Of a stretch of 64,000 bases of DNA, positions 50,003 through 63,901 are shown piece after piece. The position numbers and the translations under genes were made by a program. The notes under the pieces are model-generated. The model was not told the DNA's origin. It was given only the letters and a program-made list of their open reading frames with translations, and did no database searches. The DNA is from a virus (Duplodnaviria; Heunggongvirae; Uroviricota; Caudoviricetes), in IMG/VR virus record IMGVR_UViG_3300037502_002518, positions 5,712-69,711 of that record; one strand, 5' to 3'. The first letter of the stretch is position 1; each line of letters opens with the position of its first letter.

Positions 50003-51517
50003 ATCTCCCGAAAGAAGTCGCCCTCTTCAAGCGTGTAAAAGGCGCATTCAGACGGTAAGGGGGGAGATGAATTTAGGTCAAGCGGTAGATTAAAACTATC
50101 TTTCAATACTTTTTGTGTCAGTTCATAAATTGTACCAGAAAAGCTATTGATATAATTTTTTATTTGACACTTATCAATCACTTCTACTAAGATATTTGGG
50201 AATTCGATTAACTTGGGAACTATTTCCACTGATGTTCTCATCTAATTAGTATATACTAAGAATATGACAAAGGAGGTGACATATAAAATGTTAAAAGCCT
50301 ACAAATATCGACTATATCCAACCGAAAGTCAGAAAGAGTATTTTTCCAATTGTTTTGGTTGCGCTCGATTCATTTACAACAAAATGCTCAGCGACAAAAT
50401 CGACCACTATAAAGAAAACAAGAAAATGCTTTATACCACGCCTGCTAAGTACAAGAAAGAGTTCCCGTTTTTGAAAGAGGTGGACAGTCTAGCATTGGCA
50501 AATGCTAGACAAAATCTGGAAAGAGCTTATAAAAACTTTTTCCGAGACACGTCCGTCGGTTTTCCAAAGTTCAAATCCAAGCACAAGTCGAAATCGAGCT
50601 ACACCACTAACAATCAAGGTGGAAACATTCGTATAGAATACGGAAAAATCAAACTTCCGAAAATCGGATTCGTAAAACTGAAGCAACATAGAATGTTTGA
50701 TGGGGTTATCAAATCTTGTACGATTTCTATGAATAAGTCAGAAAAGTATTTCATTTCTATTCTAGTAAAATCAGAAGAGAAAGAAATGGAAATCACCGAA
50801 AGAAAAATTGGGATTGATTTAGGTATTTCTGATTTTGCGATTACCACGAACGATTTAGGAGAATCCGTTAAATATGATAACCCAAAGTATTTATATAAAT
50901 CAGAAAAGAAACTAAAAAAATACCAACGTTCTTTGTCTCGCAAACAAAAAGGCGGAAAAAACCGCAATAAAGCTCGTATTTAAGTCGCCAAAAAACACGA
51001 AAAGATTGCCAATCAAAGGAAGGACTTCTTGCACAAACTAACTAAACAGATTACGGACGAAAACCAAGTCATCGTAATCGAAACGCTGTCCAGTAAGAAC
51101 CTGATGAAGAACCACAAACTGGCAAAAAGCATTGGTGATGTCAGTTGGTTTGAATTCGTCCGTCAACTTGAATATAAAGCGGAACAAAAAGGTCGTACAA
51201 TTATCAAAGCGGACAGATTCTATCCATCCAGTCAGATTTGTTCCGCCTGTGGACATCGAGATGGAAAAAAAGGCATTGCATATACGAGAATGGGATTGTC
51301 CTAGTTGTGGTGAACACCTTGACCGAGACATCAATGCCAGTAAGAACCTCTTGGCATTAGCCAAGTAAAAGAAAACATATGAGGCAGGGACTGCCTTTTG
51401 AGCCTACCCCATATCCGATTCCTCTGTCTACATGACATTCGTGCAGACAAGAATGGAGTTAGTAGGAAGCCCCACTTTAAAATTTTAAGAATTTAAGTAG
51501 TGGGCAGTTCACTCATG
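50003..51517 (+). mobile_element. IS200/IS605-family (IS1341-like, tnpB-only) element or IStron-like intron inserted in tdk (boundaries approximate)
   Basis: 1.5-kb insert between tdk halves: 260-nt 5' non-coding, TnpB ORF, 150-nt 3' hairpin-rich non-coding; no TnpA. Confidence 0.6.
50264..51368 (+). pseudogene. tnpB: tnpB (OrfB, RuvC-like RNA-guided nuclease family) disrupted by an in-frame TAA (50981-50983) and a frameshift at an A7 run (51265-51271)
   Basis: N-terminal YKYRLYPT; RuvC-I GIDLGI, RuvC-II VIVIETL, zinc finger CSACGH...CPSCG, Ruv[13 protein letters not shown]. Confidence 0.75.
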
Positions 51518-52123: not shown

Positions 52124-55100
52124 TTGTTAGATTCAAGTAATTTTGCAAGCCTGCATTGCCACTCGCATTTTTCGCTTCTCGACTCAATCATGAGTCCAGA
52201 AGACATTGTAAAACAAGCAAAAGAATTGGGCTATAAGGCTGTGGCTGTAACGGAACACGGAAATATGCATTCATTTATTGATGGATACAAAGAAGCTAAA
52301 AAGCAGGGGATTAAGTATATCTTTGGGTCTGAAGTTTATGAGACAGACGACATGGATTATAAAGAGTCAGATGCAAGTCGATACCACTTGCTTTTGTTAG
52401 CTAAAAATGAGACAGGATTAAAAAACTTATTCAAAGTTGTGTCTGAGGGTTCGACAAGAGGTTTCTATGGTAAGCCTCGTATTGATAGAGAACTACTATC
52501 GGAACACTCAGAAGGTCTTATTGCAACAAGCGCTTGCCTTGCGAGTAGATTGATGAGGTTGCTTCAACAGGGCTATTGTCCATGTTGCAAACAAAGCAAT
52601 GGTGAACATAAAGAGTCGTGCGACAACGATGAAGTGTTTGAACCAAAGTGGGAAGAAGCCAAAGAAGAATTACAAAAATATAAAGACATTTTTGGTGACG
52701 ATTTCTACATTGAAATTCAATCACATGATACTCACGACCAAAAGATTGGGAATCAGCGTATTCTTCAATTGGCAAAAGAAACGGATACAAAATTTATTTT
52801 GACATTTGATGCTCACATGCCAGATGGCAGTGAAAAAACGCTTGATATTCATAGACGTTTTATTGAAGTTAGTCAAAAAGGTCGTGAAGTTGGAGAGACT
52901 TATATTGGTTGCTACCAACAAGATATGGAAACGGTTTATGATACCTTAGTCCCTCAAATTGGACAAGAAGATTTAGAGCAAGCTATTTTAAATACTGGAG
53001 CTTTAGCAGATTCATGTGAAGACATTGAATTGGACTTAAACAGACCACCAATTATGCCTCATATTGAATTCCCAAAAGAGTATAAGTCAGATGTTGACTA
53101 CTTAAAAAAGCTTGTCAATGATGGGTGGAAAGAAAGGGAAATCCACAAAAAAACAAAAGAAGAACAAAAGGTTTATAAAGAACGTGTTCTTCATGAGATG
53201 GACATTTTAGAAAAGCTTGATTATGCAGGTTATTTCCTTATCATTCACAAATTTATGAATGAATTTAGAAAGCAAGGTATTCCATTAGGCTGGGGACGTG
53301 GGAGTGCGGCTGGGTCTTTAGTCCTGTATTTAATTGGTGTAACCAATGTAGATAGTGTTTATTGGGATTTAGATTTCTCTAGGTTTGCCAACTTAGGAAG
53401 GCGACAAATGGCTGATGTTGATATTGATATTTCAAAAGCCAAACGTGGAGAAGCCTTAAAAATAACAGATGATTTATTTGGAAATAAAAAAGTTGCACAC
53501 TTGTGTACATTTAATTCTTTCTCACCAAAAGTAGCAATTAAAGACTTGGGGAAAGTATTTGACCAAAGCGAAGATAGTCCATATTTTGGAAAGATTCCAT
53601 ATTCAATGAGGGAACGTGCATCTGGACTAATCACTGATGGTTCTAACATTGAAGACGTTTTAGAAGCATCTGGTGAGCTTAGAAGAATCAAGGAAAAGTT
53701 TCCACTGTGGATTGAATATGCACAAGAACTTCAAAACTTACCTAAATCTGTAGGTTCTCATGCTTCTGCAATCATCATTGCCAACGAAGACATTGTAAAT
53801 TATGCACCTGTTATGTATAACAAAGATGGTCGTGTAATGATGCAAGTTGAAATGGGGAATGCAGAAAAAGACTTGGGACTGGTGAAGTTTGATTATCTTG
53901 GACTTGAGAGTTTAGACGTGGTAAATGAGACTTTATCTCTTTTAGGAAAAGGGTGGGAAGATTTATTTGACATTCCATTTGACGATATAAGTACATTAAA
54001 AAACATTTATGCGAAAGGTAACACACTAGGAGTTTTTCAAATGGAATCACAAACCCCAAGAAAAATATTTGAAGACATGTATGAGGGGATTCCAGAAGAT
54101 AAATTTTCTATCAATGATGTTGTTGCTGTAAATGCTTTAAACAGACCTGCTGTATTGAGTCTTGGAATGCACAACAACTACATCAAAGGGAAAAGAGACG
54201 AATCAGAAGTGTCATACATTCACGAAGACCTTAGACCTATCTTAAATGAGACATATGGTGTTCTCTTATATCAAGAAGAAGCTTTGAATGTTTTTAGACT
54301 TGCAGGATTCCCAGAAGAAGAGGTAGACGTTGCCAGAAGGTGTCTGCGTGAGGACACAATGGTACACATGTCTGACGGAACACAGAAAAAGATAAAAGAT
54401 ATTAAAGTTGGAGATTATGTGTTGAGTTACAATGAGCGTGGAGTATCTGAACCAAAAAGAGTTAACAAAGTTTTTTTCAATGGGAAAAAGTATGTAAACA
54501 GATATTTGACAGAAGAAGGACATGAGATATTTTCAACAAAAGACCATCACGTTTTAGGTCTTAATGGATTCGACAGGATTGAAAATTTTAAAGTTGGTGA
54601 CTGTTTAATGACACCAAAAGAAAGTGTTCTCCCCCAATATGTTCCAACAATAATAAAAAATATCGAAAACAGCATTGAATTTTGTGATGTATATGACATT
54701 GAAGTTGAAGATAACCACAATTATATTGCGAATGATATAATTGTTCACAACTCAATTGGTAAGAAGATTCCAGAAGAGATGGACAAACTATACGACAAAT
54801 TTTCTAGTGGTCTTAAAAAAATAGGATGGAATAAGTTGCAAATAAAGGAAACTTGGGAATTGATTGCTTCACAAGCGACTTACAGCTTTAATAAATCACA
54901 TTCCGCCAGCTATGCAATTCTGTCCTTTGTTATGGCTTATCTAAAAAACCACCATCCAAAAGAGTTTATAACCGCCTTATTGACAGATAAAAGGGGAAAC
55001 TTTGAAGATACATCTCTGTATATTGATGAGGCAAACAGAATGGGGATAAAGGTTTTAGAACCAAATATAAACACATCCAATTTGGCATACACTATATCTG

Positions 55101-55939
55101 ATGAAGGTATTGTATTTGGACTAAGCTCAATTAAGGGTGTTGGCTCTAGTGCAGAGACAATTGTCGAAGAACGAAATACAAACGGTGAATTTAAAGATTT
55201 AGAAGACTTTCTTTCTAGAGTCAAGTCAGACAAGACAGTCACAATCGCACTAATTAAATCTGGTGCTTTTGGACAGGAGAAAAATGAGCTTTTAAAAAGA
55301 TACTTTGAATTTATTTACACTCCTACTTTGTGGAAAGAGAGAAAAACATCTCCATCTAGGAAAGAGTTGCAGAAATTCATTCCAGACTTATCACTAGAGG
55401 ACTTTAAATCTATGACAAAAGAGGATAGAATGGACACATTCAATAAATATAAACATGAGGTTTACAAAAAGTCTGAAGAAAAAAGAAAAATGAACCAATG
55501 GAATGACTTTAAAGACAAGTATATCTCTCATGATGAGTCTATGTATGAGTATGAAACATTGTCAATATTCATCAATGGTAATCCATTTGACCCATACAAA
55601 AACATTATCAAACCATTTGATAAATTTAAAGATGGTTCAGATAAAATACTTGTGGCAGGAACTATTACTGATATACAGAAAAAGAAAGATAAAAACAATA
55701 ACCAATTTGCTTACATTAGCCTATTGACTCCATATGATGGAATTATAGAAGGTCTTGTGTTTGCAGGAGTATATTCAGAAGTTTCTGACATGATTAAAAA
55801 GGGGAACAATATTGTATGTATCTCTAAAAAGAGTGGAAGTCAATTCATACCCAAGAAGATGAAATCTTTTGATGACTGGAAAGAGGTGATAAGACGAAAG
55901 AAGGAAAGAAAAGAAAAGATTGAAAAACTTAAGAAGTAG
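52124..55939 (+). CDS. DNA polymerase III alpha-like (DnaE-type, N-terminal PHP domain) replicative polymerase, contains a mini-intein
   Basis: PHP motif HCHSHFSLLDS...VTEHGNM; DnaE motifs; TTG start after AAGGAGGAATT. Confidence 0.75.
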   Translation: MLDSSNFASLHCHSHFSLLDSIMSPEDIVKQAKELGYKAVAVTEHGNMHSFIDGYKEAKKQGIKYIFGSEVYETDDMDYKESDASRYHLLLLAKNETGLKNLFKVVSEGSTRGFYGKPRIDRELLSEHSEGLIATSACLASRLMRLLQQGYCPCCKQSNGEHKESCDNDEVFEPKWEEAKEELQKYKDIFGDDFYIEIQSHDTHDQKIGNQRILQLAKETDTKFILTFDAHMPDGSEKTLDIHRRFIEVSQKGREVGETYIGCYQQDMETVYDTLVPQIGQEDLEQAILNTGALADSCEDIELDLNRPPIMPHIEFPKEYKSDVDYLKKLVNDGWKEREIHKKTKEEQKVYKERVLHEMDILEKLDYAGYFLIIHKFMNEFRKQGIPLGWGRGSAAGSLVLYLIGVTNVDSVYWDLDFSRFANLGRRQMADVDIDISKAKRGEALKITDDLFGNKKVAHLCTFNSFSPKVAIKDLGKVFDQSEDSPYFGKIPYSMRERASGLITDGSNIEDVLEASGELRRIKEKFPLWIEYAQELQNLPKSVGSHASAIIIANEDIVNYAPVMYNKDGRVMMQVEMGNAEKDLGLVKFDYLGLESLDVVNETLSLLGKGWEDLFDIPFDDISTLKNIYAKGNTLGVFQMESQTPRKIFEDMYEGIPEDKFSINDVVAVNALNRPAVLSLGMHNNYIKGKRDESEVSYIHEDLRPILNETYGVLLYQEEALNVFRLAGFPEEEVDVARRCLREDTMVHMSDGTQKKIKDIKVGDYVLSYNERGVSEPKRVNKVFFNGKKYVNRYLTEEGHEIFSTKDHHVLGLNGFDRIENFKVGDCLMTPKESVLPQYVPTIIKNIENSIEFCDVYDIEVEDNHNYIANDIIVHNSIGKKIPEEMDKLYDKFSSGLKKIGWNKLQIKETWELIASQATYSFNKSHSASYAILSFVMAYLKNHHPKEFITALLTDKRGNFEDTSLYIDEANRMGIKVLEPNINTSNLAYTISDEGIVFGLSSIKGVGSSAETIVEERNTNGEFKDLEDFLSRVKSDKTVTIALIKSGAFGQEKNELLKRYFEFIYTPTLWKERKTSPSRKELQKFIPDLSLEDFKSMTKEDRMDTFNKYKHEVYKKSEEKRKMNQWNDFKDKYISHDESMYEYETLSIFINGNPFDPYKNIIKPFDKFKDGSDKILVAGTITDIQKKKDKNNNQFAYISLLTPYDGIIEGLVFAGVYSEVSDMIKKGNNIVCISKKSGSQFIPKKMKSFDDWKEVIRRKKERKEKIEKLKK
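54341..54751 (+). mobile_element. mini-intein (137 aa, no endonuclease domain) in the polymerase: CLREDTMVH...IIVHN followed by S
   Basis: N-terminal Cys, block B TKDHH, C-terminal VHN+Ser; flanking extein ARR|SIGKKIPEEM matches the conserved DnaE RRAMGKKKPEEM region. Confidence 0.75.
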
Positions 55940-56910: not shown

Positions 56911-57978
56911 TTATTTTACTCTAATATTTTGATTTGGATAAATAATATACTTTGGAGCTTTAACCTGTGGGTTAAGCTTCTTAATTTCATCTAAACTAAT
57001 GTTGTGTTTTTCTGCAATCTTTCCTAATGAGTCGCCAGATTTTACAACATAATTTTTGACTTTACTTCCTTTGATTTTAAGCTTTTGACCAACTCTAATG
57101 ATATTAGGGTTTGCAATTTTATTATCTCTAGCAATCTTTGCTGTTTTCACTCCAAAGTCTTGAGCAATTTTAGATAATGAATCTCCTGCTCTAACTACAT
57201 AGATAACTTCGTCACTATCTTTTTTGGCATCTTCAATCATATTTTTTAAAGCTTTTTTAGAGTTAGCACCATATAAACCATCAACAGCAATTTTAGCTTT
57301 CTTTTGCATAGCTTTTAGGGCATCTTCACTTTCATTTCCAAAATGACCATCTGCACCAAATTTAGGTAATTTAAACCCTGCTTTGATTAGGAGTTCTTGC
57401 ATTTCTTTTACGTCTTCGCCTTTGTCTCCGTTTTCTAAATACCCTTTAGATGTTGAAGCTGGAGCTTTAGATGGGTTTTGACCCATCTCTTCTTTGACCA
57501 TATTAATGAAATCTGTCCAACTAATACCATCTTTATTTGCACGAATTTCTCTTGGACAATTTTTTCCACTCCAGTCATTATGTTGCTTGATGTTTTCTAC
57601 TGGAATATTCTCCTGTTTTGCAATTTGAGCTACAACGTTAGCTGTATTTTCAATTGCTTTCTTGTAATTTCCATCCGAGTTAACACATGCTTCTACAGCA
57701 ATAGAATGCATATTACCGTCTCCACGACCGTCTCCAGCATGGAAGCAACTTACATCATAATCAAATGATTGAATTGCCTCTTTGTCATCAACTTGTAAAT
57801 GCCAAGATGCCACCCTTACACCATTTCTTGATTGTAAATTTGCATGTGCTTGAGCATCTGCACCTTTGGATGTATTCCCAGTTGTGTGAACTGTAATATA
57901 TTTCTTTTTATTTAGACGACCATATGACTTATCTTTAACTACACTCTCTGGAACAATTTGCTTTTTAATTTTAACCAT
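56911..57978 (-). CDS. endolysin: N-acetylmuramoyl-L-alanine amidase (amidase_2/PGRP), PG_binding_1 and two LysM domains
   Basis: amidase_2 core (ITVHTTGN...ASWH...CFHAG), PG-binding DKGEDVKEMQELL, LysM repeats YVVRAGDSLSKIA and YVVKSGDSLGKIA. Confidence 0.85.
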   Translation of the reverse strand: MVKIKKQIVPESVVKDKSYGRLNKKKYITVHTTGNTSKGADAQAHANLQSRNGVRVASWHLQVDDKEAIQSFDYDVSCFHAGDGRGDGNMHSIAVEACVNSDGNYKKAIENTANVVAQIAKQENIPVENIKQHNDWSGKNCPREIRANKDGISWTDFINMVKEEMGQNPSKAPASTSKGYLENGDKGEDVKEMQELLIKAGFKLPKFGADGHFGNESEDALKAMQKKAKIAVDGLYGANSKKALKNMIEDAKKDSDEVIYVVRAGDSLSKIAQDFGVKTAKIARDNKIANPNIIRVGQKLKIKGSKVKNYVVKSGDSLGKIAEKHNISLDEIKKLNPQVKAPKYIIYPNQNIRVK

Positions 57979-57995
57979 AAAAACATCTCCTTTTT

Positions 57996-58259
57996 TTATT
58001 TTTCTTTTGTATATCCTTCACGCTTATGAGCTAGTTCAAACAGTCCTGTACCTGCCAATCCTGCAATTGCACCAGCCCAAGCCCTTGAAGCTAAATCTAA
58101 ATCCCCAATTGGGTAAGCTAAAACACCAATAATAATGCCAACAAAAAAGCTTACTGAGGGGACAATATTCTTTCTGATGTTGAATGTTTTTTTTATCAGC
58201 TCTACTACTGCTGTTACTACAGGAAGTAGAACAGTTCCAAACATTAAAACCTCATTCAT
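57996..58259 (-). CDS. holin (two TM helices, charged C-terminus)
   Basis: 87 aa, TM topology, immediately upstream of endolysin. Confidence 0.65.
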   Translation of the reverse strand: MNEVLMFGTVLLPVVTAVVELIKKTFNIRKNIVPSVSFFVGIIIGVLAYPIGDLDLASRAWAGAIAGLAGTGLFELAHKREGYTKEK

Positions 58260-58609
58260 TAATATTCACTCCTATCTTTTTTGAACCTCATTAGCTCTAC
58301 TTTCAACTCTTGATTTACTTGTTGAAGTCTATTAACTTCTCTACTTAATTTTCCTATTTCTCTATTTGCTTGAGAAAGCTCTTTGTGTAAACTTGCTATC
58401 TCGAACCTGTACGAAGCTAGCTCATTTTTATAGCCATCTATTGTCTCCCTTAACTCAGCTCTAAATTGCTTTTCGTCCTCAGATAGTTGTTGTCTATCGT
58501 TTATTGCCAAATCTTTATCGTTGTTGTTTTTTGATATAAAAAAAGTAAAAACAGATGACACTAGACCAACTAAAGCTGGGACAAAAACGCTGATTAAGTC
58601 TTCATTCAT
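58259..58609 (-). CDS. membrane-anchored coiled-coil protein (possible lysis accessory/spanin-like)
   Basis: N-terminal TM then heptad-rich sequence. Confidence 0.4.
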   Translation of the reverse strand: MNEDLISVFVPALVGLVSSVFTFFISKNNNDKDLAINDRQQLSEDEKQFRAELRETIDGYKNELASYRFEIASLHKELSQANREIGKLSREVNRLQQVNQELKVELMRFKKDRSEY

Positions 58610-58986
58610 TGTGTTTTTTGACCTCCTATCTTATATGAGAGCCAAAAAGCAAAGAGTGACGTAACATAATAAGTGATTCCAGTGCTGTAAATTCCCGATT
58701 GAATACTAGATATTAAAAACATTGTGGCTACACCAGACCAAACAAACGATGTAATTGACAAACTTGCAATTTTTAGCTTCTTCTCTTTTTGAATCATTGA
58801 ATATAACTGGAATAAACTTACCAGTATTAATGCAATCCCCCAAATCTCTTCTCTTGCTACCAGACTCATTGGCTCATAAGCTCTATTATCAAATGTATTA
58901 TTTGGCAATAGTAGAATTAAGCCAAAAACAAACATTTGGGAAATAAAGTATGTTTCAATAGGTCGAAAACTCTTTAACAAATTCAT
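58606..58986 (-). CDS. polytopic membrane protein (about 4 TM)
   Basis: hydrophobic segments. Confidence 0.4.
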   Translation of the reverse strand: MNLLKSFRPIETYFISQMFVFGLILLLPNNTFDNRAYEPMSLVAREEIWGIALILVSLFQLYSMIQKEKKLKIASLSITSFVWSGVATMFLISSIQSGIYSTGITYYVTSLFAFWLSYKIGGQKTQ

Positions 58987-59088
58987 ATTTCTACCCTCCT
59001 TTGTAAAAAAGCCCTTACACTATAATAGTGGCTTCTATAGAAAAATGTGAAAGACTCAATCCTTTGTGAAGACTAAGCCTTTCTCTAT

Positions 59089-61032
59089 CTACATAATGAA
59101 GTAGTATCCTGTTCTAGTTGAGCTTGCATCTACTGCAATTCTAGCATTTAAGTCGCTAACTCCAACCACCCTTGGATAGAATATTGCATCTATGTCTTTC
59201 CAATCAATTGCTCTAGGAGCAAAAGTCCCATCAATGTCCCTTCTAGATATACCTAACATTGCTGATAAGTCATCATGAATTCTAGGTTGGACAAAAGCAT
59301 CAATTTCTGGTCTAGAAGTTAAGAATATTGCATTGACAACATCTGTTTCATTTCTTCGGACAACAAATGTTGCATCAATATTGTCGTGATATTTTACTTC
59401 TAATTTAGCATCAATTTTTGGTCTAGAAGTTAAGAAGACTGCACCAATGTCTGACTTGCCTAAAGCTCTAACATAGAATGTTGACTCAATATCGTCTTCT
59501 GCATAAATCATAGCTCTAAATGTCGCATCAATTTCTGGTTTTGTTGATACTAAAATAGAAGAAAGGTCTTCATTTTCTCTTTGTCTAACAATGAATGTCG
59601 CATCTATATTACTATGTGATTTAACTTCTAATATTGAATCAACCTCTTGTCTTGACACTCCAAATGTTGCATCAATATCTTCTGTTTCTGCTTGTTGCAC
59701 AACAAATGTACCATCTAAATGCTTATAGAATCTAACTTCAAGCATTGAATCAATTTCTGGTCTAGAAGTTAAGAACCTCGCACCTAAGTCGGACTCTCCT
59801 AACGCTCTAACATGGAGTGTTGCATCAATATTTTCATGATGTTTTACTTCAAATGTTGACTCCAAATCTGGTTTAGATACATTTAACATAGAATCTAAGA
59901 AGTCAAATCTTGGAATCTTTGTAAGTAAAGTACCATCTAAATCAGAATTTCCTGTTGCATAGTTAAAGAATATTGATGTTAAATCTGGTCTACTAACATA
60001 GAAGAAAGCTTGCAAATCAGTAGGATATGGTGTATCATATCTATGAGCATAGAAAGTTGCACTTAAATCATCAAATCCATATGTTGAATGAACTTCAAAT
60101 GTTGCATCCAAATCTGACGTTCCTGTTCCTACAGCAAATAACGTTGCATCTAATGTGTCATCGCCATAACTTTGAACTCTACTGTCATAGTATTTAAGAT
60201 ATAGATGAGAAGGGTTGTGATTTTCTTTTGTTAAGAAAGTGTTTGTCTTGTTGAATTGACCGACTTCAAATATTGCGAATCCAAAGTCTTCCTCTTCATC
60301 TCTTACAATTCTATTAACATAGTCCATGAAGTCAAATTCAATATATTTATCTTCTTTGTTATGGATAAATGTATCAGAAATTACTTCGCTTGAAGCAGGT
60401 CTACTTGCATAAGTGATACCTGTTTCTGTCCACATTCTTGTAACTTTTCTTAACTCAATTTGAGTGCCATCTTTTAATGTACCAGCATAATTAAGTCTTA
60501 ATTTCGCTTCTTCAAATACAGTTGACGGTTCAAATTGTTCTAAGTCAAAATCAACATATGAAATAAAGTCTTCTCCGTAACCTCTACCAACTTCCATACC
60601 ATTAATTGTACCAAAGTTAACATAAGTGTATTCGTTACTATTTCTAACATTGGCATCTTTTATTGGCGGTAGGTCAACTTCAATTCTTGGTGGTTCATAA
60701 AGGTCAAACAAACCAAACATTCTTGCACTAGGTCTAACCTCTAAAGTTGCAGGAATATCTGAAGGAGACATAATCATAATTGTAGAGTCTAGACTGGACT
60801 CACTTCCGTACATGACTTCAAATGTTGCATCTAAATCTTCATATCTCTCTACTCTTGGACTAAATATTGCATCTAAATCATTATTTCTAGGAAGATAAAC
60901 AGTAAAGAAAGCATTTAGTGTGTCATCTCCTAGTGCATATAAAGTAAAATCCCCAAACATTTTATTGTTTGGGGATACGAATAGGAGACTATTTAAATCA
61001 TTACTATCATCTTTCCAAATAATCTCACTCAA
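59089..61032 (-). CDS. putative tail fibre/receptor-binding protein with about 26 tandem 12-residue repeats (consensus x-D-[IL]-D-A-T-F-x-V-x-x-x)
   Basis: 647-aa ORF; repeat visible in protein and as a degenerate 36-nt DNA periodicity 59.3-60.2 kb. Confidence 0.55.
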   Translation of the reverse strand: MSEIIWKDDSNDLNSLLFVSPNNKMFGDFTLYALGDDTLNAFFTVYLPRNNDLDAIFSPRVERYEDLDATFEVMYGSESSLDSTIMIMSPSDIPATLEVRPSARMFGLFDLYEPPRIEVDLPPIKDANVRNSNEYTYVNFGTINGMEVGRGYGEDFISYVDFDLEQFEPSTVFEEAKLRLNYAGTLKDGTQIELRKVTRMWTETGITYASRPASSEVISDTFIHNKEDKYIEFDFMDYVNRIVRDEEEDFGFAIFEVGQFNKTNTFLTKENHNPSHLYLKYYDSRVQSYGDDTLDATLFAVGTGTSDLDATFEVHSTYGFDDLSATFYAHRYDTPYPTDLQAFFYVSRPDLTSIFFNYATGNSDLDGTLLTKIPRFDFLDSMLNVSKPDLESTFEVKHHENIDATLHVRALGESDLGARFLTSRPEIDSMLEVRFYKHLDGTFVVQQAETEDIDATFGVSRQEVDSILEVKSHSNIDATFIVRQRENEDLSSILVSTKPEIDATFRAMIYAEDDIESTFYVRALGKSDIGAVFLTSRPKIDAKLEVKYHDNIDATFVVRRNETDVVNAIFLTSRPEIDAFVQPRIHDDLSAMLGISRRDIDGTFAPRAIDWKDIDAIFYPRVVGVSDLNARIAVDASSTRTGYYFIM

Positions 61033-61095
61033 TTTAATTCACTTCCTATCCATTGTATTGGATGGAGATAATACTAGCTTCCACTAGTATCTTCT

Positions 61096-62586
61096 TCATA
61101 TTTTATTTGCAAATACAGCAATCTCAAACTCGCCACCCATTTTGGGTTGTGCATCAATTCTTGTTGCCAATCTTACCCAGAAGTTTACACTTTCACCACT
61201 TTGTAAGATAGTTCCATCCCATTTTAGTTCTGGACTCGCAACAAATGGGCTTTCATTTTTGCTTAATTCAACAGTTACACCTTCATGACCTACGAATGAT
61301 GTGATTCTTGGGTCACTTACAGCATAGCCATGATTGTTTTTCATTACAACATTATAAGCTTGTGTAACTTGACCTGCTGTGATAGCTCCCATCTTCAGAT
61401 ACTTAAGGACTTCTCCAACGTTAGTTGAGTATTGTCCACCCAATGGGTCAGTAAATACAAGACCATAATACGTACCGATGAAGCTTGTATTCCAAAAATC
61501 ACTTCTGCCCCATGCATCTTTGAACTCAATTTCAATTGTGTTGTTTACATCAAAATTAATCAGATGGTTTGGAATCGTATAAGAGATACTTAATGGAGAA
61601 TTTTCCAGCTCTGTAAACTCTTCTACACCCATTGTTGGAAATACTACTTGACCATTCAGACGGATAAGATATTGCACTTTTCCACTATCTGCATCATCAA
61701 TTTGGGCAAGTAAGTTACCACCAGAATATTCCACATTAATTGTTGACACTGTATTTAAAATATATAAACTCATGTTATCAATTTTTGGAGTAGAATCAGC
61801 AACATACTGGTCAACACTTACACTGTGGATTTCAGATACATTATAGGTGTGAACGTCCTCTTCTAGATAGAACGCAATTGTCATACCATCTCTTCCAAAC
61901 TTGTCTCCAATGTTTGGAATCAACTCTAGGTCACTCAAGTTCATACCTTTTTGTTTGACCTCATCTGGAATGTTGATATTAACTGAATCCCACACCCCTC
62001 TATCGAAATCATAATATGTCCACGATGTGCCACCAGTAAATGAAACTACCGTTTTATTTACCGAATTTGACGATTCTGTGAACTCTGAGGAAATTTTGTC
62101 AACATAGGAAATAACCTGTGTTGGACTGGATAAAACTGCTACTTGAGGATTTGGTAAAGCACCCAAATTTAGTGTCCTAGTAGAATTTTCTTCGTCTGTC
62201 CACGTCACGAGGTCAAAATCTCCATCAATTTCATCTAATGGCGAATAATTCGCATCAAATTCAATTTTTGTCGGTTCAGTCACCCCTAAATTATCAGTAT
62301 AATACATGATGTTCATGCTGTCGCCCATTTCGTCATATAGCGTGAATGGGTTAGTTTCTACAGTAAATAAAACCTCTGTTTTATTTACATCCTCTGTATA
62401 GAATGAGATTGTTGGACTGTCTAATTCCTGCCATGCTGACTCTGGAATTGCTTCTACGACTACAAGTTCCATACCAAAATCAATATAGTCCTGTTCAGTT
62501 GGGGTTGTACCTATTGACTGCCAAGTTGTACCATCATAGTACTTGTAGTCAGAGCTGGACGAAATTAATACTTTATTTACTGCCAT
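61096..62586 (-). CDS. putative tail/baseplate structural protein (496 aa)
   Basis: large ORF between two fibre-like genes, shared leader AGATAGGAAGGTGATT. Confidence 0.45.
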   Translation of the reverse strand: MAVNKVLISSSSDYKYYDGTTWQSIGTTPTEQDYIDFGMELVVVEAIPESAWQELDSPTISFYTEDVNKTEVLFTVETNPFTLYDEMGDSMNIMYYTDNLGVTEPTKIEFDANYSPLDEIDGDFDLVTWTDEENSTRTLNLGALPNPQVAVLSSPTQVISYVDKISSEFTESSNSVNKTVVSFTGGTSWTYYDFDRGVWDSVNINIPDEVKQKGMNLSDLELIPNIGDKFGRDGMTIAFYLEEDVHTYNVSEIHSVSVDQYVADSTPKIDNMSLYILNTVSTINVEYSGGNLLAQIDDADSGKVQYLIRLNGQVVFPTMGVEEFTELENSPLSISYTIPNHLINFDVNNTIEIEFKDAWGRSDFWNTSFIGTYYGLVFTDPLGGQYSTNVGEVLKYLKMGAITAGQVTQAYNVVMKNNHGYAVSDPRITSFVGHEGVTVELSKNESPFVASPELKWDGTILQSGESVNFWVRLATRIDAQPKMGGEFEIAVFANKI

Positions 62587-62653: not shown

Positions 62654-63901
62654 CTACTTTACATTTAAACTCTTAATGTATTTGTCTACTGGTTGTTCAA
62701 ATACTTTTCCATTACCTAGTGTGGCTGATGTGTTGTTAATGTATTGTTTTTGTGCCATTTTCTCTTGTGGGTTGATTACTTGTGTTGTCACCATGCCATG
62801 ATTGATGAAGTCTTGTTCTGTTTTGGAAGGAAGTTGTTTTAATGTAGTATTTTGACCAAACATCTCTAATTCTTGCACAACAACATAAGATGCAAACCCA
62901 TTATTAGAATTTATATTTAACCTATACATTTTATATTTTGTAAAGTTAATAAAACTAAATTCTCTCGTTTCTGCTTGCGACCAATTAGTTTCATCTATCA
63001 CTGTGTGTAAAGTATTAATATCATCAACAAAACCATCATTACTTCCTTCGAATGTCCAGTTTTTTGGAGATTCCCCAACACTTGTTCCTCTTGATGTTAC
63101 TTTATATTTGTTTATAATTGTAGGATTTTCAAATTCATATTGCAACCATCCTGTATTTACTCCTTCTGATGAAGCCCATCCACTAGCAGGACCAGAGCCT
63201 TTTATTTTGTCAAATGCCTTCCATGCAAAATAATCAGAACTATATTCAGAGCTTGCACTAGCTATACCTTTTGGTGCAGTATTGCTTGTCATTGTTGGTA
63301 CTAAATTGACTTCTTCAACCTTTTCTAAACTCAACGAATTGCCAGAGCTTGATGAAATCAATATTTTTTTTTGAAATCCATAAGGTTTGTATCCCTCTGG
63401 AATAGTGTAATTTAAATTGTCTTCATTGGTTAATATCGTTGCCCCAACACCTCGGGTAGAAGAACCAGATGTTAAAAAAGGGTAAACTGCATCATATTGA
63501 CTATAATCATCACCCGTATATACTCCTTGAGGTACACCATTTTTAAAAAATTCTATTTTATTATTGTCTATATCAATAGCAACGCCAATCACATCAGATG
63601 TTGTAAAAGACATACCATAACTTATATTTTCTGGATAGATGTTACCACTTGTATAATATGATGTTGATTTTGGATATAAAAATTTAGAATCACTATGTGT
63701 TAAAACTCCACTGTCTGACACTCCAATAAGGTGGAGATTTCCACCAGATAAGTTAGATATTTCCCAATACCATTTGCCAGACGTTAATCCAACACTACCT
63801 AAAACAGCATTACTCAGATTGGGAACACTTGCTGTCATATTATTATTACTCAGAGTGACATTACTCGTTTTCAAATCAGCACTCCATGAATATTCTTCCA
63901 T
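62654..63901 (-). CDS. putative receptor-binding protein with SPRY-like and discoidin (F5/8 type C)-like domains
   Basis: GKWYWEISNLSGG...HLIGVS (SPRY signature) and C-terminal NWTFEGSNDG...WSQAE block. Confidence 0.5.
   Translation of the reverse strand: MEEYSWSADLKTSNVTLSNNNMTASVPNLSNAVLGSVGLTSGKWYWEISNLSGGNLHLIGVSDSGVLTHSDSKFLYPKSTSYYTSGNIYPENISYGMSFTTSDVIGVAIDIDNNKIEFFKNGVPQGVYTGDDYSQYDAVYPFLTSGSSTRGVGATILTNEDNLNYTIPEGYKPYGFQKKILISSSSGNSLSLEKVEEVNLVPTMTSNTAPKGIASASSEYSSDYFAWKAFDKIKGSGPASGWASSEGVNTGWLQYEFENPTIINKYKVTSRGTSVGESPKNWTFEGSNDGFVDDINTLHTVIDETNWSQAETREFSFINFTKYKMYRLNINSNNGFASYVVVQELEMFGQNTTLKQLPSKTEQDFINHGMVTTQVINPQEKMAQKQYINNTSATLGNGKVFEQPVDKYIKSLNVK

Follow-up and report, generated by a model that had tools for sequence, protein, structure and literature searches.

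A phage protein combining a CBM96 domain with a three-unit, 37-residue repeat is a probable distal tail adhesin

The protein encoded at the boundary of the tail and lysis genes in the window (the whole 64,000-nucleotide stretch of Caudoviricetes DNA that was analysed) is probably a distal tail adhesin built on a previously undescribed solenoid-type repeat family. It consists of a short N-terminal run of repeats, a CBM96 / DNRLRE carbohydrate-binding domain and a long C-terminal repeat array (Table 1). This array is probably a stackable beta-solenoid, gaining or losing one 37-residue layer at a time. To the reading as a whole, in which the last tail protein is a CBM96 adhesin or fibre with a single-chain solenoid of 37-residue layers, three strands to a layer, we give an even chance.

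Table 1. The gene, the parts of its product and the neighbouring features. Positions refer to the window, residues to the encoded protein.
Feature	Position	Strand	Details	Basis
ORF	59089..61032	(-)	647 aa, TTG start, stop codon included	ORF listing
Shine-Dalgarno-like AGGAAG	61042..61047	(-)	9 nt 5' of TTG start	sequence reading
N-terminal repeat region	60718..60999	(-)	residues 12-105, about 6 D-h-D-A-T-h-x-V units	PSSM parse
CBM96 / DNRLRE carbohydrate-binding beta-sandwich	60196..60678	(-)	residues 119-279	Pfam, NCBIfam, AF2, Foldseek
C-terminal repeat array	59113..60156	(-)	residues 293-640, 27 beta-strand units, about 9 triplets	PSSM parse
Super-repeat missing in P0002	59338..59448	(-)	residues 529-565	global alignment, single exact 37-aa gap
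Conserved C-terminal tail	59092..59112	(-)	...TRTGYYFIM-COOH	conservation in homologues
Terminator-like hairpin	59049..59083	(-)	15-pair stem then T-run, begins 6 nt past stop codon	consensus scan, sequence
Upstream partner gene	61096..62586	(-)	496 aa; phrog_16766 (C-terminal part), phrog_10667	PHROG scan
Tail-module protein	62654..63901	(-)	415 aa, SPRY + F5/8 type C (discoidin)	Pfam
Downstream lysis cassette	56911..58986	(-)		Pfam, source-contig gene list
Two small membrane or coiled-coil ORFs	58606-58986, 58259-58609	(-)	lysis cassette	
A118-type holin	57996-58259	(-)	lysis cassette	
Amidase_2 + PG_binding_1 + 2x LysM endolysin	56911-57978	(-)	lysis cassette	

The open reading frame given in the preliminary description is real. 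Its TTG start is preferred because the homologues conserve an 'SPNNxMxGxF' motif upstream of the internal ATG (M25), from which the JGI protein P0001, 100% identical to ours, was called. Inspection of the sequence upstream of that ATG revealed no Shine-Dalgarno-like site, and M25 was ruled out as the start on both grounds. The protein matched phrog_11333 in a PHROG profile scan (E 8.5e-86, residues 61-635), as did its homologues P0010, P0033, P0004 and P0008; PHROG 11333 is a family of unknown function. No signal-peptide-like hydrophobic stretch was seen by eye at the N-termini of the protein and nine homologues. If the family members are unsecreted, the sugar-binding module would reach the cell surface only on the virion or after lysis. 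At the very C-terminus the family has the motif Y-x-[FY]-I-[MLIF], with Y643 and I646 almost unchanged across 33 homologues; most of the top 150 family representatives end in this way too, proteins of 2000-3600 aa among them. The tail is a candidate solenoid cap or attachment peptide.

Residues 119-279 are a CBM96 / DNRLRE beta-sandwich by sequence as well as by fold. They matched Pfam PF24517 with E 1.8e-19 (70.6 bits, cut-off 26) and the DNRLRE model NCBIfam NF033679 with E 1.4e-20 (74 bits, cut-off 34), and a PDB profile match was obtained with 8wab (E 2.4e-11). The AF2 model of the domain has pLDDT values of 80-92, and Foldseek matched it to 8wab (E 2.5e-8, target-normalised TM-score 0.78) and 7vbo (E 4.9e-6). 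It superposes on both structures, namely the chondroitin-sulfate-binding module 8wab and TM6-N4 of the alginate lyase Dp0100 (7vbo), at about 20% identity. The CBM96 prototype binds alginate through basic groove residues, and CBM96 domains are otherwise known from surface proteins and from secreted polysaccharide lyases (PMC9971899); chondroitin sulfate binding is given in the description of PDB entry 8wab. Unlike 7vbo and 8wab, the domain studied here resides in a phage tail-module protein, is flanked by repeats and is accompanied by neither a visible signal peptide nor a catalytic domain, none having been detected in the protein with Pfam or NCBIfam. This domain, which the preliminary description had overlooked, carries most of the functional inference.

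The preliminary description had reported a near-continuous array of about 26 copies of a 12-residue DxDATFxV repeat from about residue 290 onwards, with a 36-nt periodicity in the DNA. The array, its core and the existence of a periodicity all stood, with 27 units counted between residues 293 and 640, whereas the fixed 12-residue unit and the 36-nt period did not. Over 32 units the core reads D-[LI]-D-[ASG]-T-[FL]-x-V, with Asp at position 1 in 18/32 and at position 3 in 19/32, Leu or Ile at position 2 in 30/32, Ala, Ser or Gly at position 4 in 32/32 and Phe or Leu at position 6 in 29/32. Positions 2, 4, 6 and 8 are hydrophobic or small, and positions 1, 3, 5, 7 and 9 are polar. Units are 14 (11 times), 11 (8 times), 12 (5 times), 15 (once) or 17 (once) residues long, 12.8 on average. 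The true period is a triplet of units, 11 + 12 + 14 = 37 residues: BLOSUM autocorrelation reached 0.53 at lag 37 (z=11.9), against a maximum of -0.40 over all lags in the shuffled protein (n=300), with z values of 3.9 at lag 12, 7.7 at lag 14 and 4.4 at lag 25. The periodicity, whose absence had been named as contrary evidence, is significant. Clean super-repeats of 37-39 residues occupy residues 378-414, 415-451, 452-488, 489-527 and 528-564. The units N-terminal to CBM96, which had also been overlooked, are bracketed by two copies of P-x-N/A-[KR]-M-F-G-x-F (residues 20-29 and 100-109).

This three-unit hierarchy is a property of the family. The unit types A, B and C (11, 12 and 14 aa) are conserved in 33 homologues, where a tight turn with the conserved sequence S-[KR]-P-[DE] comes after unit A, Pro being present in 86% of 97 super-repeats; super-repeats in the family are spaced by 37 (77 times), 39 (39 times) or 41 residues (18 times). 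A survey of unit lengths covered 199 arrays in about 157 proteins, most of which represent clusters at 50% identity. Here the probability that two units are equally long was 0.55, 0.47 and 0.42 at distances of 3, 6 and 9 units and 0.23-0.31 at the remaining distances, and the 11-residue unit came back three units later in 480 of 662 cases. Multiples of three are over-represented among the unit counts C-terminal to CBM96 (47/29/18 for remainders 0/1/2).

At the DNA level, the 36-nt periodicity was insignificant (z=1.7) and the real period is 111 nt (z=9.2); it shows up in five related 60-nt copies, spaced 111 nt apart and 60-78% identical. Tandem Repeats Finder reported no array inside the ORF. 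The suggestion that copy number varies between isolates held for the relatives compared, in which the number of repeats does differ. A close relative at 77-83% identity is shorter by exactly one super-repeat; five pairs of relatives differ by exact 37-residue indel blocks and two further pairs by indels totalling 37 or 74 residues, with no 2-unit (about 25 aa) indels among the relatives compared, and the lengths of the 33 closest homologues cluster at 571-574, 603-611, 644-652 and 680-689 aa. Between our protein and P0002, identity is 91-94% in the N-terminus and CBM96 and 40-70% in super-repeats 1-3. The copy number thus changes in whole 37-residue blocks, not in 12-mers. Slippage, put forward earlier as the mechanism, is unlikely because the super-repeats share only 52-69% nucleotide identity; unequal recombination is the likelier cause. 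We note that the whole-triplet size of the indels could merely mirror where the DNA homology lies, without any structural constraint.

The view that the repeat is not a named family was borne out, as no Pfam, NCBIfam or PDB entry matches it. Searches with the whole protein returned CBM96 alone from Pfam (E<=1) and the DNRLRE domain alone from NCBIfam; with 12 repeat-only sequences, no Pfam family was matched by more than one member (E<=10), and PDB sequence profiles gave nothing better than E=0.23 on the repeats. The Pfam PbH1, Beta_helix, pectate-lyase, SufBD and curlin models did not match either the protein (E<=1) or the 12 repeat-only sequences (E<=10), and thus no sequence match to a known beta-helix tailspike family, which had been named as contrary evidence, was obtained. 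Likewise, there were no Pfam matches to collagen G-X-Y, pentapeptide, hexapeptide LbH or RTX GGxGxDxUx repeats, and the units have no periodic Gly. A profile of the repeats alone recovered at least 523 protein clusters at the 50% identity level, with CBM96 present in 142 of the top 150.

Megablast against deposited phages found no near relative, the best tblastn identity among them being 28.9%. PHROG 11333 includes gp367 of Bacillus phage G, gp53 of Brevibacillus phage Sundance, the Jenst and SecTim467 homologues, ORF173 of Psychrobacillus phage Perkons, gp064 of Bacillus phage SP-15 (4401 aa), gp86 of Listeria phage LIS04, and Paenibacillus 'DNRLRE domain-containing proteins' on genome contigs (presumed prophages). 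These share with our protein the layout of repeats, CBM96 and repeats, a super-repeat of 37-41 residues and usually the C-terminal Y-x-F-I-M, at 22-34% full-length identity. Unlike our protein, those of SP-15 and LIS04 carry the module twice, within proteins of 3567-4401 aa that extend beyond it; the 'pectate lyase' label of SP-15 gp064 corresponds to a weak Pel9A-like match that lies beyond the shared module, in the N-terminal residues 14-111 of that protein. One 4226-residue protein without CBM96 (P0190) was set aside, since it has a different 12-residue 'STLxV' repeat and is only marginally similar. The literature searched on DNRLRE/CBM96 in phages and on Sundance, SP-15, Perkons and phage G yielded nothing on the function or structure of the family; its one published mention that we found concerns gp367 of phage G, described as a 'conserved hypothetical ORF' (PMC12484599).

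Gene order makes the previously suggested tail-fibre role plausible, for a fibre or an adhesin. At four loci (the source contig, Sundance, a Paenibacillus silvae contig and Perkons) the gene is the last of the tail module, in distal position, preceded by YomF_N, SPRY/discoidin and phrog_16766-like genes and followed by holin and amidase genes; the P. silvae genome contig is a presumed prophage. In SP-15 and LIS04, the family gene adjoins a phrog_16766-like gene in the order found in the window, and for phage G gp367 co-localisation of a phrog_16766-type family with phrog_11333 has been stated (PMC12484599). The upstream partner in the window has no Pfam domain, and the SPRY/discoidin protein beyond it matched phrog_17517 'tail protein' with E 2.8e-50. 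The terminator-like hairpin marks the end of the tail transcription unit; it and a promoter-like site lie between the gene and the lysis cassette, on the side away from the tail genes. The same stretch was the only hit of Tandem Repeats Finder, as a 17-nt x2 repeat.

Fold prediction was confident for CBM96 alone. In a full-length AF2 run (monomer, 33 aligned sequences), the repeats had pLDDT values of 30-55, and strands in the N-terminal repeats were placed at residues 38-47, 53-57, 66-75, 81-89 and 95-101 with pLDDT 50-57. A second run on four super-repeats, with 46 four-super-repeat segments of family members cut at super-repeat boundaries, gave a monomer of mean pLDDT 49 and pTM 0.42. Both runs showed one strand per unit at low confidence, and the low-confidence repeat model (pLDDT about 50) resembles parallel beta-solenoids. 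Foldseek matched the full model to PDB entries through CBM96 only and returned nothing below E 0.01 in BFVD for the repeat model. To tell parallel stacking from an antiparallel meander, opposite charges were sought between units 1, 2 or 3 apart, and no geometry showed a positive enrichment. Side-chain-volume covariation at the inward positions was uninformative because the same-position correlation was uniform, about 0.1, at every distance. Neither analysis yielded a stacking or cross-core signal, for or against.

Two other arrangements of the repeats have to be weighed against the single-chain, three-strand coil. Phage fibres are usually trimers, and the repeats might form a homotrimeric fibre, either an intertwined triple beta-helix or a beta-prism with faces from three chains. 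Even with 33-46 aligned sequences the AF2 monomers had low confidence for the repeats in both runs, as obligate oligomers typically do, and amphipathic strands with a single hydrophobic face require a partner surface. However, in an intertwined threefold-symmetric fibre a single-unit indel would do no more than turn the chain through 120 degrees and ought to be tolerated, whereas the indels seen are whole triplets and the unit counts favour multiples of three. Moreover, three unit types with differing turn lengths recur with period 3 throughout the family; an intertwined trimer would stack unlike turns on one another, whereas the stacking of like on like fits a single-chain coil. We regard the trimer as unlikely on this evidence. 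A side-by-side, tailspike-like trimer of single-chain solenoids is a separate matter and is compatible with the single-chain model. The second arrangement, which we consider quite unlikely, is a flattened two-sheet beta-solenoid similar to SufB/SufD or curli, with two units (about 25 residues) per turn and the 37-residue period as a trace of duplication. It would account for the above-chance signal at lag 25, and a small inward residue at position 4 facing a large one at position 6 across the core would keep the thickness even. Against it, the period-3 unit lengths and the S-[KR]-P turn at every third unit extend over about 157 proteins, mostly 50%-identity cluster representatives, a breadth that recent duplication alone would not be expected to give. 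Along each edge, turns of unequal length would also alternate irregularly, indels of two units were not seen, adjacent units showed no cross-core volume anticorrelation, and the AF2 repeat model is of low confidence.

Placement on the virion may be questioned as well. The protein could instead be a cytoplasmic accessory factor released by lysis, for instance a depolymerase scaffold or a factor that binds wall or capsule, with host or neighbouring cells as its target. The gene does lie exactly at the tail/lysis boundary, CBM96 domains otherwise occur in secreted lyases and surface proteins (PMC9971899), and in the literature we found no virion proteomics evidence for gp367, nor proteomic or genetic data on virion presence or adsorption for any family member. 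Nevertheless, the hairpin and promoter-like site set a boundary on the lysis side of the gene and not on its tail side, the gene travels with tail-module genes (phrog_16766, discoidin/SPRY) across distant phages, and SP-15 and LIS04 embed the module in proteins whose size and gene order lead us to regard them as tail-fibre-like. No catalytic domain was detected either. On the whole such a non-virion role appears improbable.

From these results, a hypothesis regarding the function of the protein may be proposed. The phage would be a large long-tailed one of Bacillales, and the gene would encode the distal, final protein of its tail module, most likely acting as a host-surface adhesin or fibre. 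Behind the short N-terminal repeats, the CBM96 beta-sandwich would bind a cell-wall or capsular polysaccharide and be followed by a rigid single-chain parallel beta-solenoid. Each 37-residue layer would be one coil of three beta-strands contributed by units A, B and C; about nine such layers would follow CBM96, and the aromatic C-terminus (GYYFIM) may close the stack. Since the 111-nt blocks are diverged copies of one another, unequal recombination between them could add or remove whole layers. Divergence between close relatives is fastest in the central layers, and this may adjust the reach of the protein or its surface specificity.

The repeat is present in at least 523 clusters, including proteins of 2000-4400 aa, yet it is absent from Pfam, NCBIfam and the PDB. 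Genes for it occur in the cultured phages G, SP-15, LIS04, Sundance, Jenst, SecTim467 and Perkons, and in every one of them the protein has either no annotation or a wrong one. Defining the family by the three-unit 37-residue beta repeat, CBM96 and Y-x-F-I-M would name the last tail gene of these phages, supply a testable role in host-polysaccharide adhesion and help to predict or engineer host range; a naturally length-quantised beta-solenoid scaffold would also become available for structural study. More tentatively, and with considerable doubt, the D-h-D-[SGA]-T-h-x-V units may represent an undescribed class of beta-solenoid with an unusually wide coil of 37-41 residues, three near-equivalent strands in quantised arcs of 11, 12 and 14 residues, a length of 13 being almost never used, putative Ca2+-binding Asp ladders and an aromatic C-terminal cap. 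With CBM96 they would make up the receptor-binding organelle, tunable in length, of many as yet uncharacterised long-tailed and jumbo phages of Bacillales, phage G and SP-15 included.

No new biological principle is involved, since both tail proteins with beta-solenoids and fibres that bear CBMs have been described before. Parallel beta-solenoids such as the SufB/SufD core, curli CsgA, UpaB-type autotransporter passengers and right-handed beta-helix tailspikes are likewise modular in length and consist of stacked short parallel strands with alternating inward hydrophobics, as proposed for our repeats, which have no sequence relationship to them (Pfam up to E<=10). The coils of SufB/SufD, curli, autotransporter and tailspike solenoids are about 18-25 residues long, and the helices of catalytic tailspikes have far less regular repeats; the proposed coil differs in its 37 residues, its three near-identical strands of 11, 12 and 14 residues and its S-K/R-P-D/E turn. 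The VxGxxxxx triple beta-helix of T4 gp5 and the 15-residue triple beta-spiral of adenovirus also build viral attachment organelles from short beta repeats with alternating hydrophobics, but their repeat lengths and motifs are different and, unlike the repeats described here, they have no period-3 hierarchy.

The tandem array noted in the preliminary description of the window protein, a tail-fibre candidate with about 26 copies of a 12-residue DxDATFxV repeat and a 36-nt periodicity in its DNA, was partly confirmed: a repeat exists, but the period and extent given for it were wrong. In residues 293-640 the BLOSUM autocorrelation peaked at a lag of 37 residues (0.53, z=11.9; across 300 shuffles no lag exceeded -0.40), while lags 14 and 12 reached z=7.7 and z=3.9, respectively. 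At the DNA level, z was 9.2 at a lag of 111 nt and 1.7 at 36 nt; a repeat finder returned a 60-nt family spaced by 111 nt (60-78% identity), and Tandem Repeats Finder detected no array within the ORF. Using a position matrix seeded with the obvious copies and then iterated, we parsed 27 units in residues 293-640 and about 6 further units, previously missed, in residues 12-105. The unit core is D-[LI]-D-[ASG]-T-[FL]-x-V-[RK/S]. Unit lengths vary, being 14 (11 times), 11 (8 times), 12 (5 times), 15 and 17 (once each), with a mean of 12.8, so the repeat is not a 12-mer; the units are grouped as triplets of 11+12+14 = 37 aa (e.g. residues 378-414, 415-451, 452-488 and 528-564), here called super-repeats.

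Period 3 is a structural feature of the whole family. In 97 super-repeats from 33 proteins three distinct unit types were found: A, h-D-S-x-h-x-h-S-[KR]-P, with Pro in 86%; B, [DE]-L-x-[SGA]-x-h-x-V-[RK]; and C, D-h-D-[GSA]-T-h-x-[VI]-[RK]. Successive super-repeats are spaced by 37 (77 cases), 39 (39) or 41 (18) residues. The 5490 units parsed in about 157 proteins include 955 of 11, 1623 of 12 and 2176 of 14 residues, length 13 being nearly absent (60/5157 spacings), and this quantisation suggests a few discrete turn geometries. Across 199 arrays, the probability of equal unit length was 0.55, 0.47 and 0.42 at distances of 3, 6 and 9 units and 0.23-0.31 at other distances; the best period was 3 in 134 arrays, and of 662 cases, 480 had the 11-aa unit recurring at three-unit spacing. 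The unit count after the carbohydrate-binding domain CBM96 is enriched for multiples of three (remainders 0/1/2 = 47/29/18), and C-terminal region lengths group in steps of about 37 aa.

Judged by its sequence, the repeat is not a known family, as had been proposed. The whole window protein matched CBM96 alone in Pfam at E≤1, no Pfam family was matched by more than one of 12 repeat-only sequences at E≤10, and the best PDB profile match to the repeats had E=0.23; among PHROGs, the protein belongs to phrog_11333, labelled 'unknown function' (E 8.5e-86). Word-indexed searches yielded about 33 full-length homologues of 27-34% identity, mainly Paenibacillus 'DNRLRE domain-containing proteins', and P0002 (77-83%, by alignment used). 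With tblastn, relatives of 22-29% identity were found in Brevibacillus phages Sundance, Jenst and SecTim467, Psychrobacillus phage Perkons, Bacillus phages SP-15 and G (gp367), Listeria phage LIS04 and Lysinibacillus phage LC76P1. An exhaustive HMM search of 1.84 billion representatives with a repeat-only profile lacking CBM96 gave 523 clusters at E≤1e-3, of which 161 reached E≤1e-30; some of the proteins are 2000-4448 aa long, and the profile matches them in as many as 12 stretches. CBM96 also occurs in 142 of the 150 best matches (one copy in 121, two in 20, three in 1), and the giant proteins scanned carry two each and no more. Most of these top 150, proteins of 2000-3600 aa included, end in Y-x-[FY]-I-[MLIF]-COOH, a candidate cap, attachment peptide or assembly signal; SP-15-like giants run on beyond the module. 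One further match, P0190 (4226 aa), lacks CBM96 and fits the profile weakly; its very regular 12-aa repeat, S-T-L-x-V-x-x-A-x-T-L-x, is different and has a super-period of 54 aa. P0190 probably belongs to another family. The repeat family of the window protein is undescribed, with an unusual three-unit hierarchy of 37 aa.

Overlooked earlier was a CBM96/DNRLRE domain at residues 119-279, matched by Pfam PF24517 (70.6 bits, cut-off 26) and NCBIfam NF033679 (74 bits, cut-off 34) and modelled by AF2 with pLDDT 80-92. The model can be superposed on 8wab, a module that binds chondroitin sulfate (E 2.5e-8), and on 7vbo, one that binds alginate (E 4.9e-6). The CBM96 prototype is a Ca2+-containing beta-sandwich whose basic groove holds the alginate chain (PMC9971899).

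The repeats themselves were modelled at pLDDT 30-55 in the full protein. Four super-repeats were also modelled on their own, from 46 aligned stretches of four super-repeats each, with ends placed at super-repeat boundaries; this gave pLDDT 49, pTM 0.42 and 12 strands; one strand per unit is thus AF2's construction at low confidence and does not imply a correct model. Positions 2, 4, 6 and 8 of the unit are hydrophobic or small and alternate with polar residues, a pattern of inward and outward side chains that fits a solenoid. An intertwined C3 helix was considered as well; the period-3 unit types and the gain or loss of whole triplets argue against it, because single-unit shifts would be symmetric there, and fit three strands per coil with like stacked on like. 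Charge and volume covariation between units gave no informative signal on geometry. Such whole-triplet changes are seen in P0002, which differs from the window protein by a single exact 37-aa gap (window residues 529-565), and in the Paenibacillus pairs (49-76% identical) P0012/P0009, P0025/P0013, P0013/P0017 and P0019/P0018, likewise with exact 37-aa gaps; in other pairs the gaps total 37 or 74 aa. By length, the 33 closest homologues fall into groups of 571-574, 603-611, 644-652 and 680-689 aa. The repeat number therefore varies, as anticipated, but the proposed replication slippage is unlikely, since super-repeats are only 52-69% identical in nucleotides; copies are more likely gained or lost through unequal recombination between like units. 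The window protein and P0002 are 91-94% identical over the N-terminus and CBM96 but 70, 65 and 40% identical in super-repeats 1, 2 and 3, so the central layers evolve fastest or are exchanged.

Features of the window protein gene and its surroundings
Feature	Position	Strand	Remarks
ORF	59089-61032	-	647 aa from TTG codon; coordinates agree with the preliminary description
Conserved C-terminal tail	59092-59112	-	Y-x-[FY]-I-[MLIF]-COOH, likewise at C-termini of homologues P0052-P0194
Terminator-like hairpin	59049-59083	-	15-pair stem and T-run; 6 nt past stop codon
Promoter-like site	59051-59022	-	after terminator-like hairpin
496-aa protein	61096-62586	-	5' neighbour; matches phrog_16766 and phrog_10667; no Pfam domain
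SPRY and F5/8 type C (discoidin) protein	62654-63901	-	upstream; matches phrog_17517 'tail protein'

The TTG is preceded, at a distance of 9 nt, by the ribosome-binding site AGGAAG. The public gene call P0001 (JGI contig Ga0310129_0000135, 117 kb), 100% identical, starts at M25, an internal ATG with no ribosome-binding site in front of it on reading the sequence. This start was set aside and the TTG retained, because homologues keep the motif SPNNxMxGxF upstream of M25, with N23 nearly invariant. A second terminator-like hairpin within the coding region (60949-60976, minus strand; 11 pairs, ATCCCCAAACAATAAAATGTTTGGGGAT and a T-rich tail) spans this ATG, and could be due to chance or be a regulatory or alternative-start feature. 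Elsewhere in the window, which has 33% G+C and nothing closely related to it among deposited phages, an intein in the DNA polymerase III alpha gene at 52124-55939 (+) is indicated by Pfam hits precomputed for the source contig, with PF14890 Intein_splicing among PHP, DNA_pol3_alpha and HHH_6. An IS605-family OrfB/TnpB-like gene is seemingly split into two ORFs, at 50264-50983 (+) with HTH_OrfB_IS605 and OrfB_IS605 and at about 51104-51304 (+) with Cas12f1-like_TNB.

The part of phrog_16766 ('regulator of chromosome condensation') matched by the 496-aa neighbour is its C-terminal third. Co-localisation of this family with phrog_11333 has been reported (PMC12484599), and the neighbour may be a structural partner of the window protein. 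SPRY, discoidin and CBM96 make three putative glycan- or ligand-binding modules within the last three tail genes; a YomF_N protein is encoded farther upstream on the source contig. The terminator stretch coincides with a 17-nt x2.1 tandem repeat of Tandem Repeats Finder, and the promoter-like site is followed by two small ORFs, an A118-type holin and an amidase-LysM endolysin. This gene order is repeated in Sundance, Perkons and a prophage-like Paenibacillus silvae genome contig; in SP-15 and LIS04 the module sits within a giant protein, next after an RCC1-like gene. Sundance, Jenst, SecTim467 and Perkons are long-tailed siphophages (PMC4909266; PMC13245101). No hydrophobic stretch resembling a signal peptide was seen on inspection of the N-termini of the window protein and nine homologues. 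In the Perkons tail module, a 'reverse transcriptase' gene (MT325768.1 90877-91953; L006 3093-4169) lies two genes upstream of ORF173 and may belong to a diversity-generating retroelement or a group II intron; none is present among the genes called within about 10 kb of the window's gene in either direction.

Read most economically, the protein would be a distal tail adhesin or fibre, with a polysaccharide-binding module on a rigid, length-adjustable repeat body, its virion location and ligand being what we infer. The initial interpretation is partly supported: the repeat is unnamed and a tail-fibre role plausible, the 12-residue unit is abandoned and slippage is unlikely. Beta-solenoid-type phage tail proteins with a carbohydrate-binding module are a known kind of object, to which the window protein belongs; it is the repeat family itself that is undescribed.
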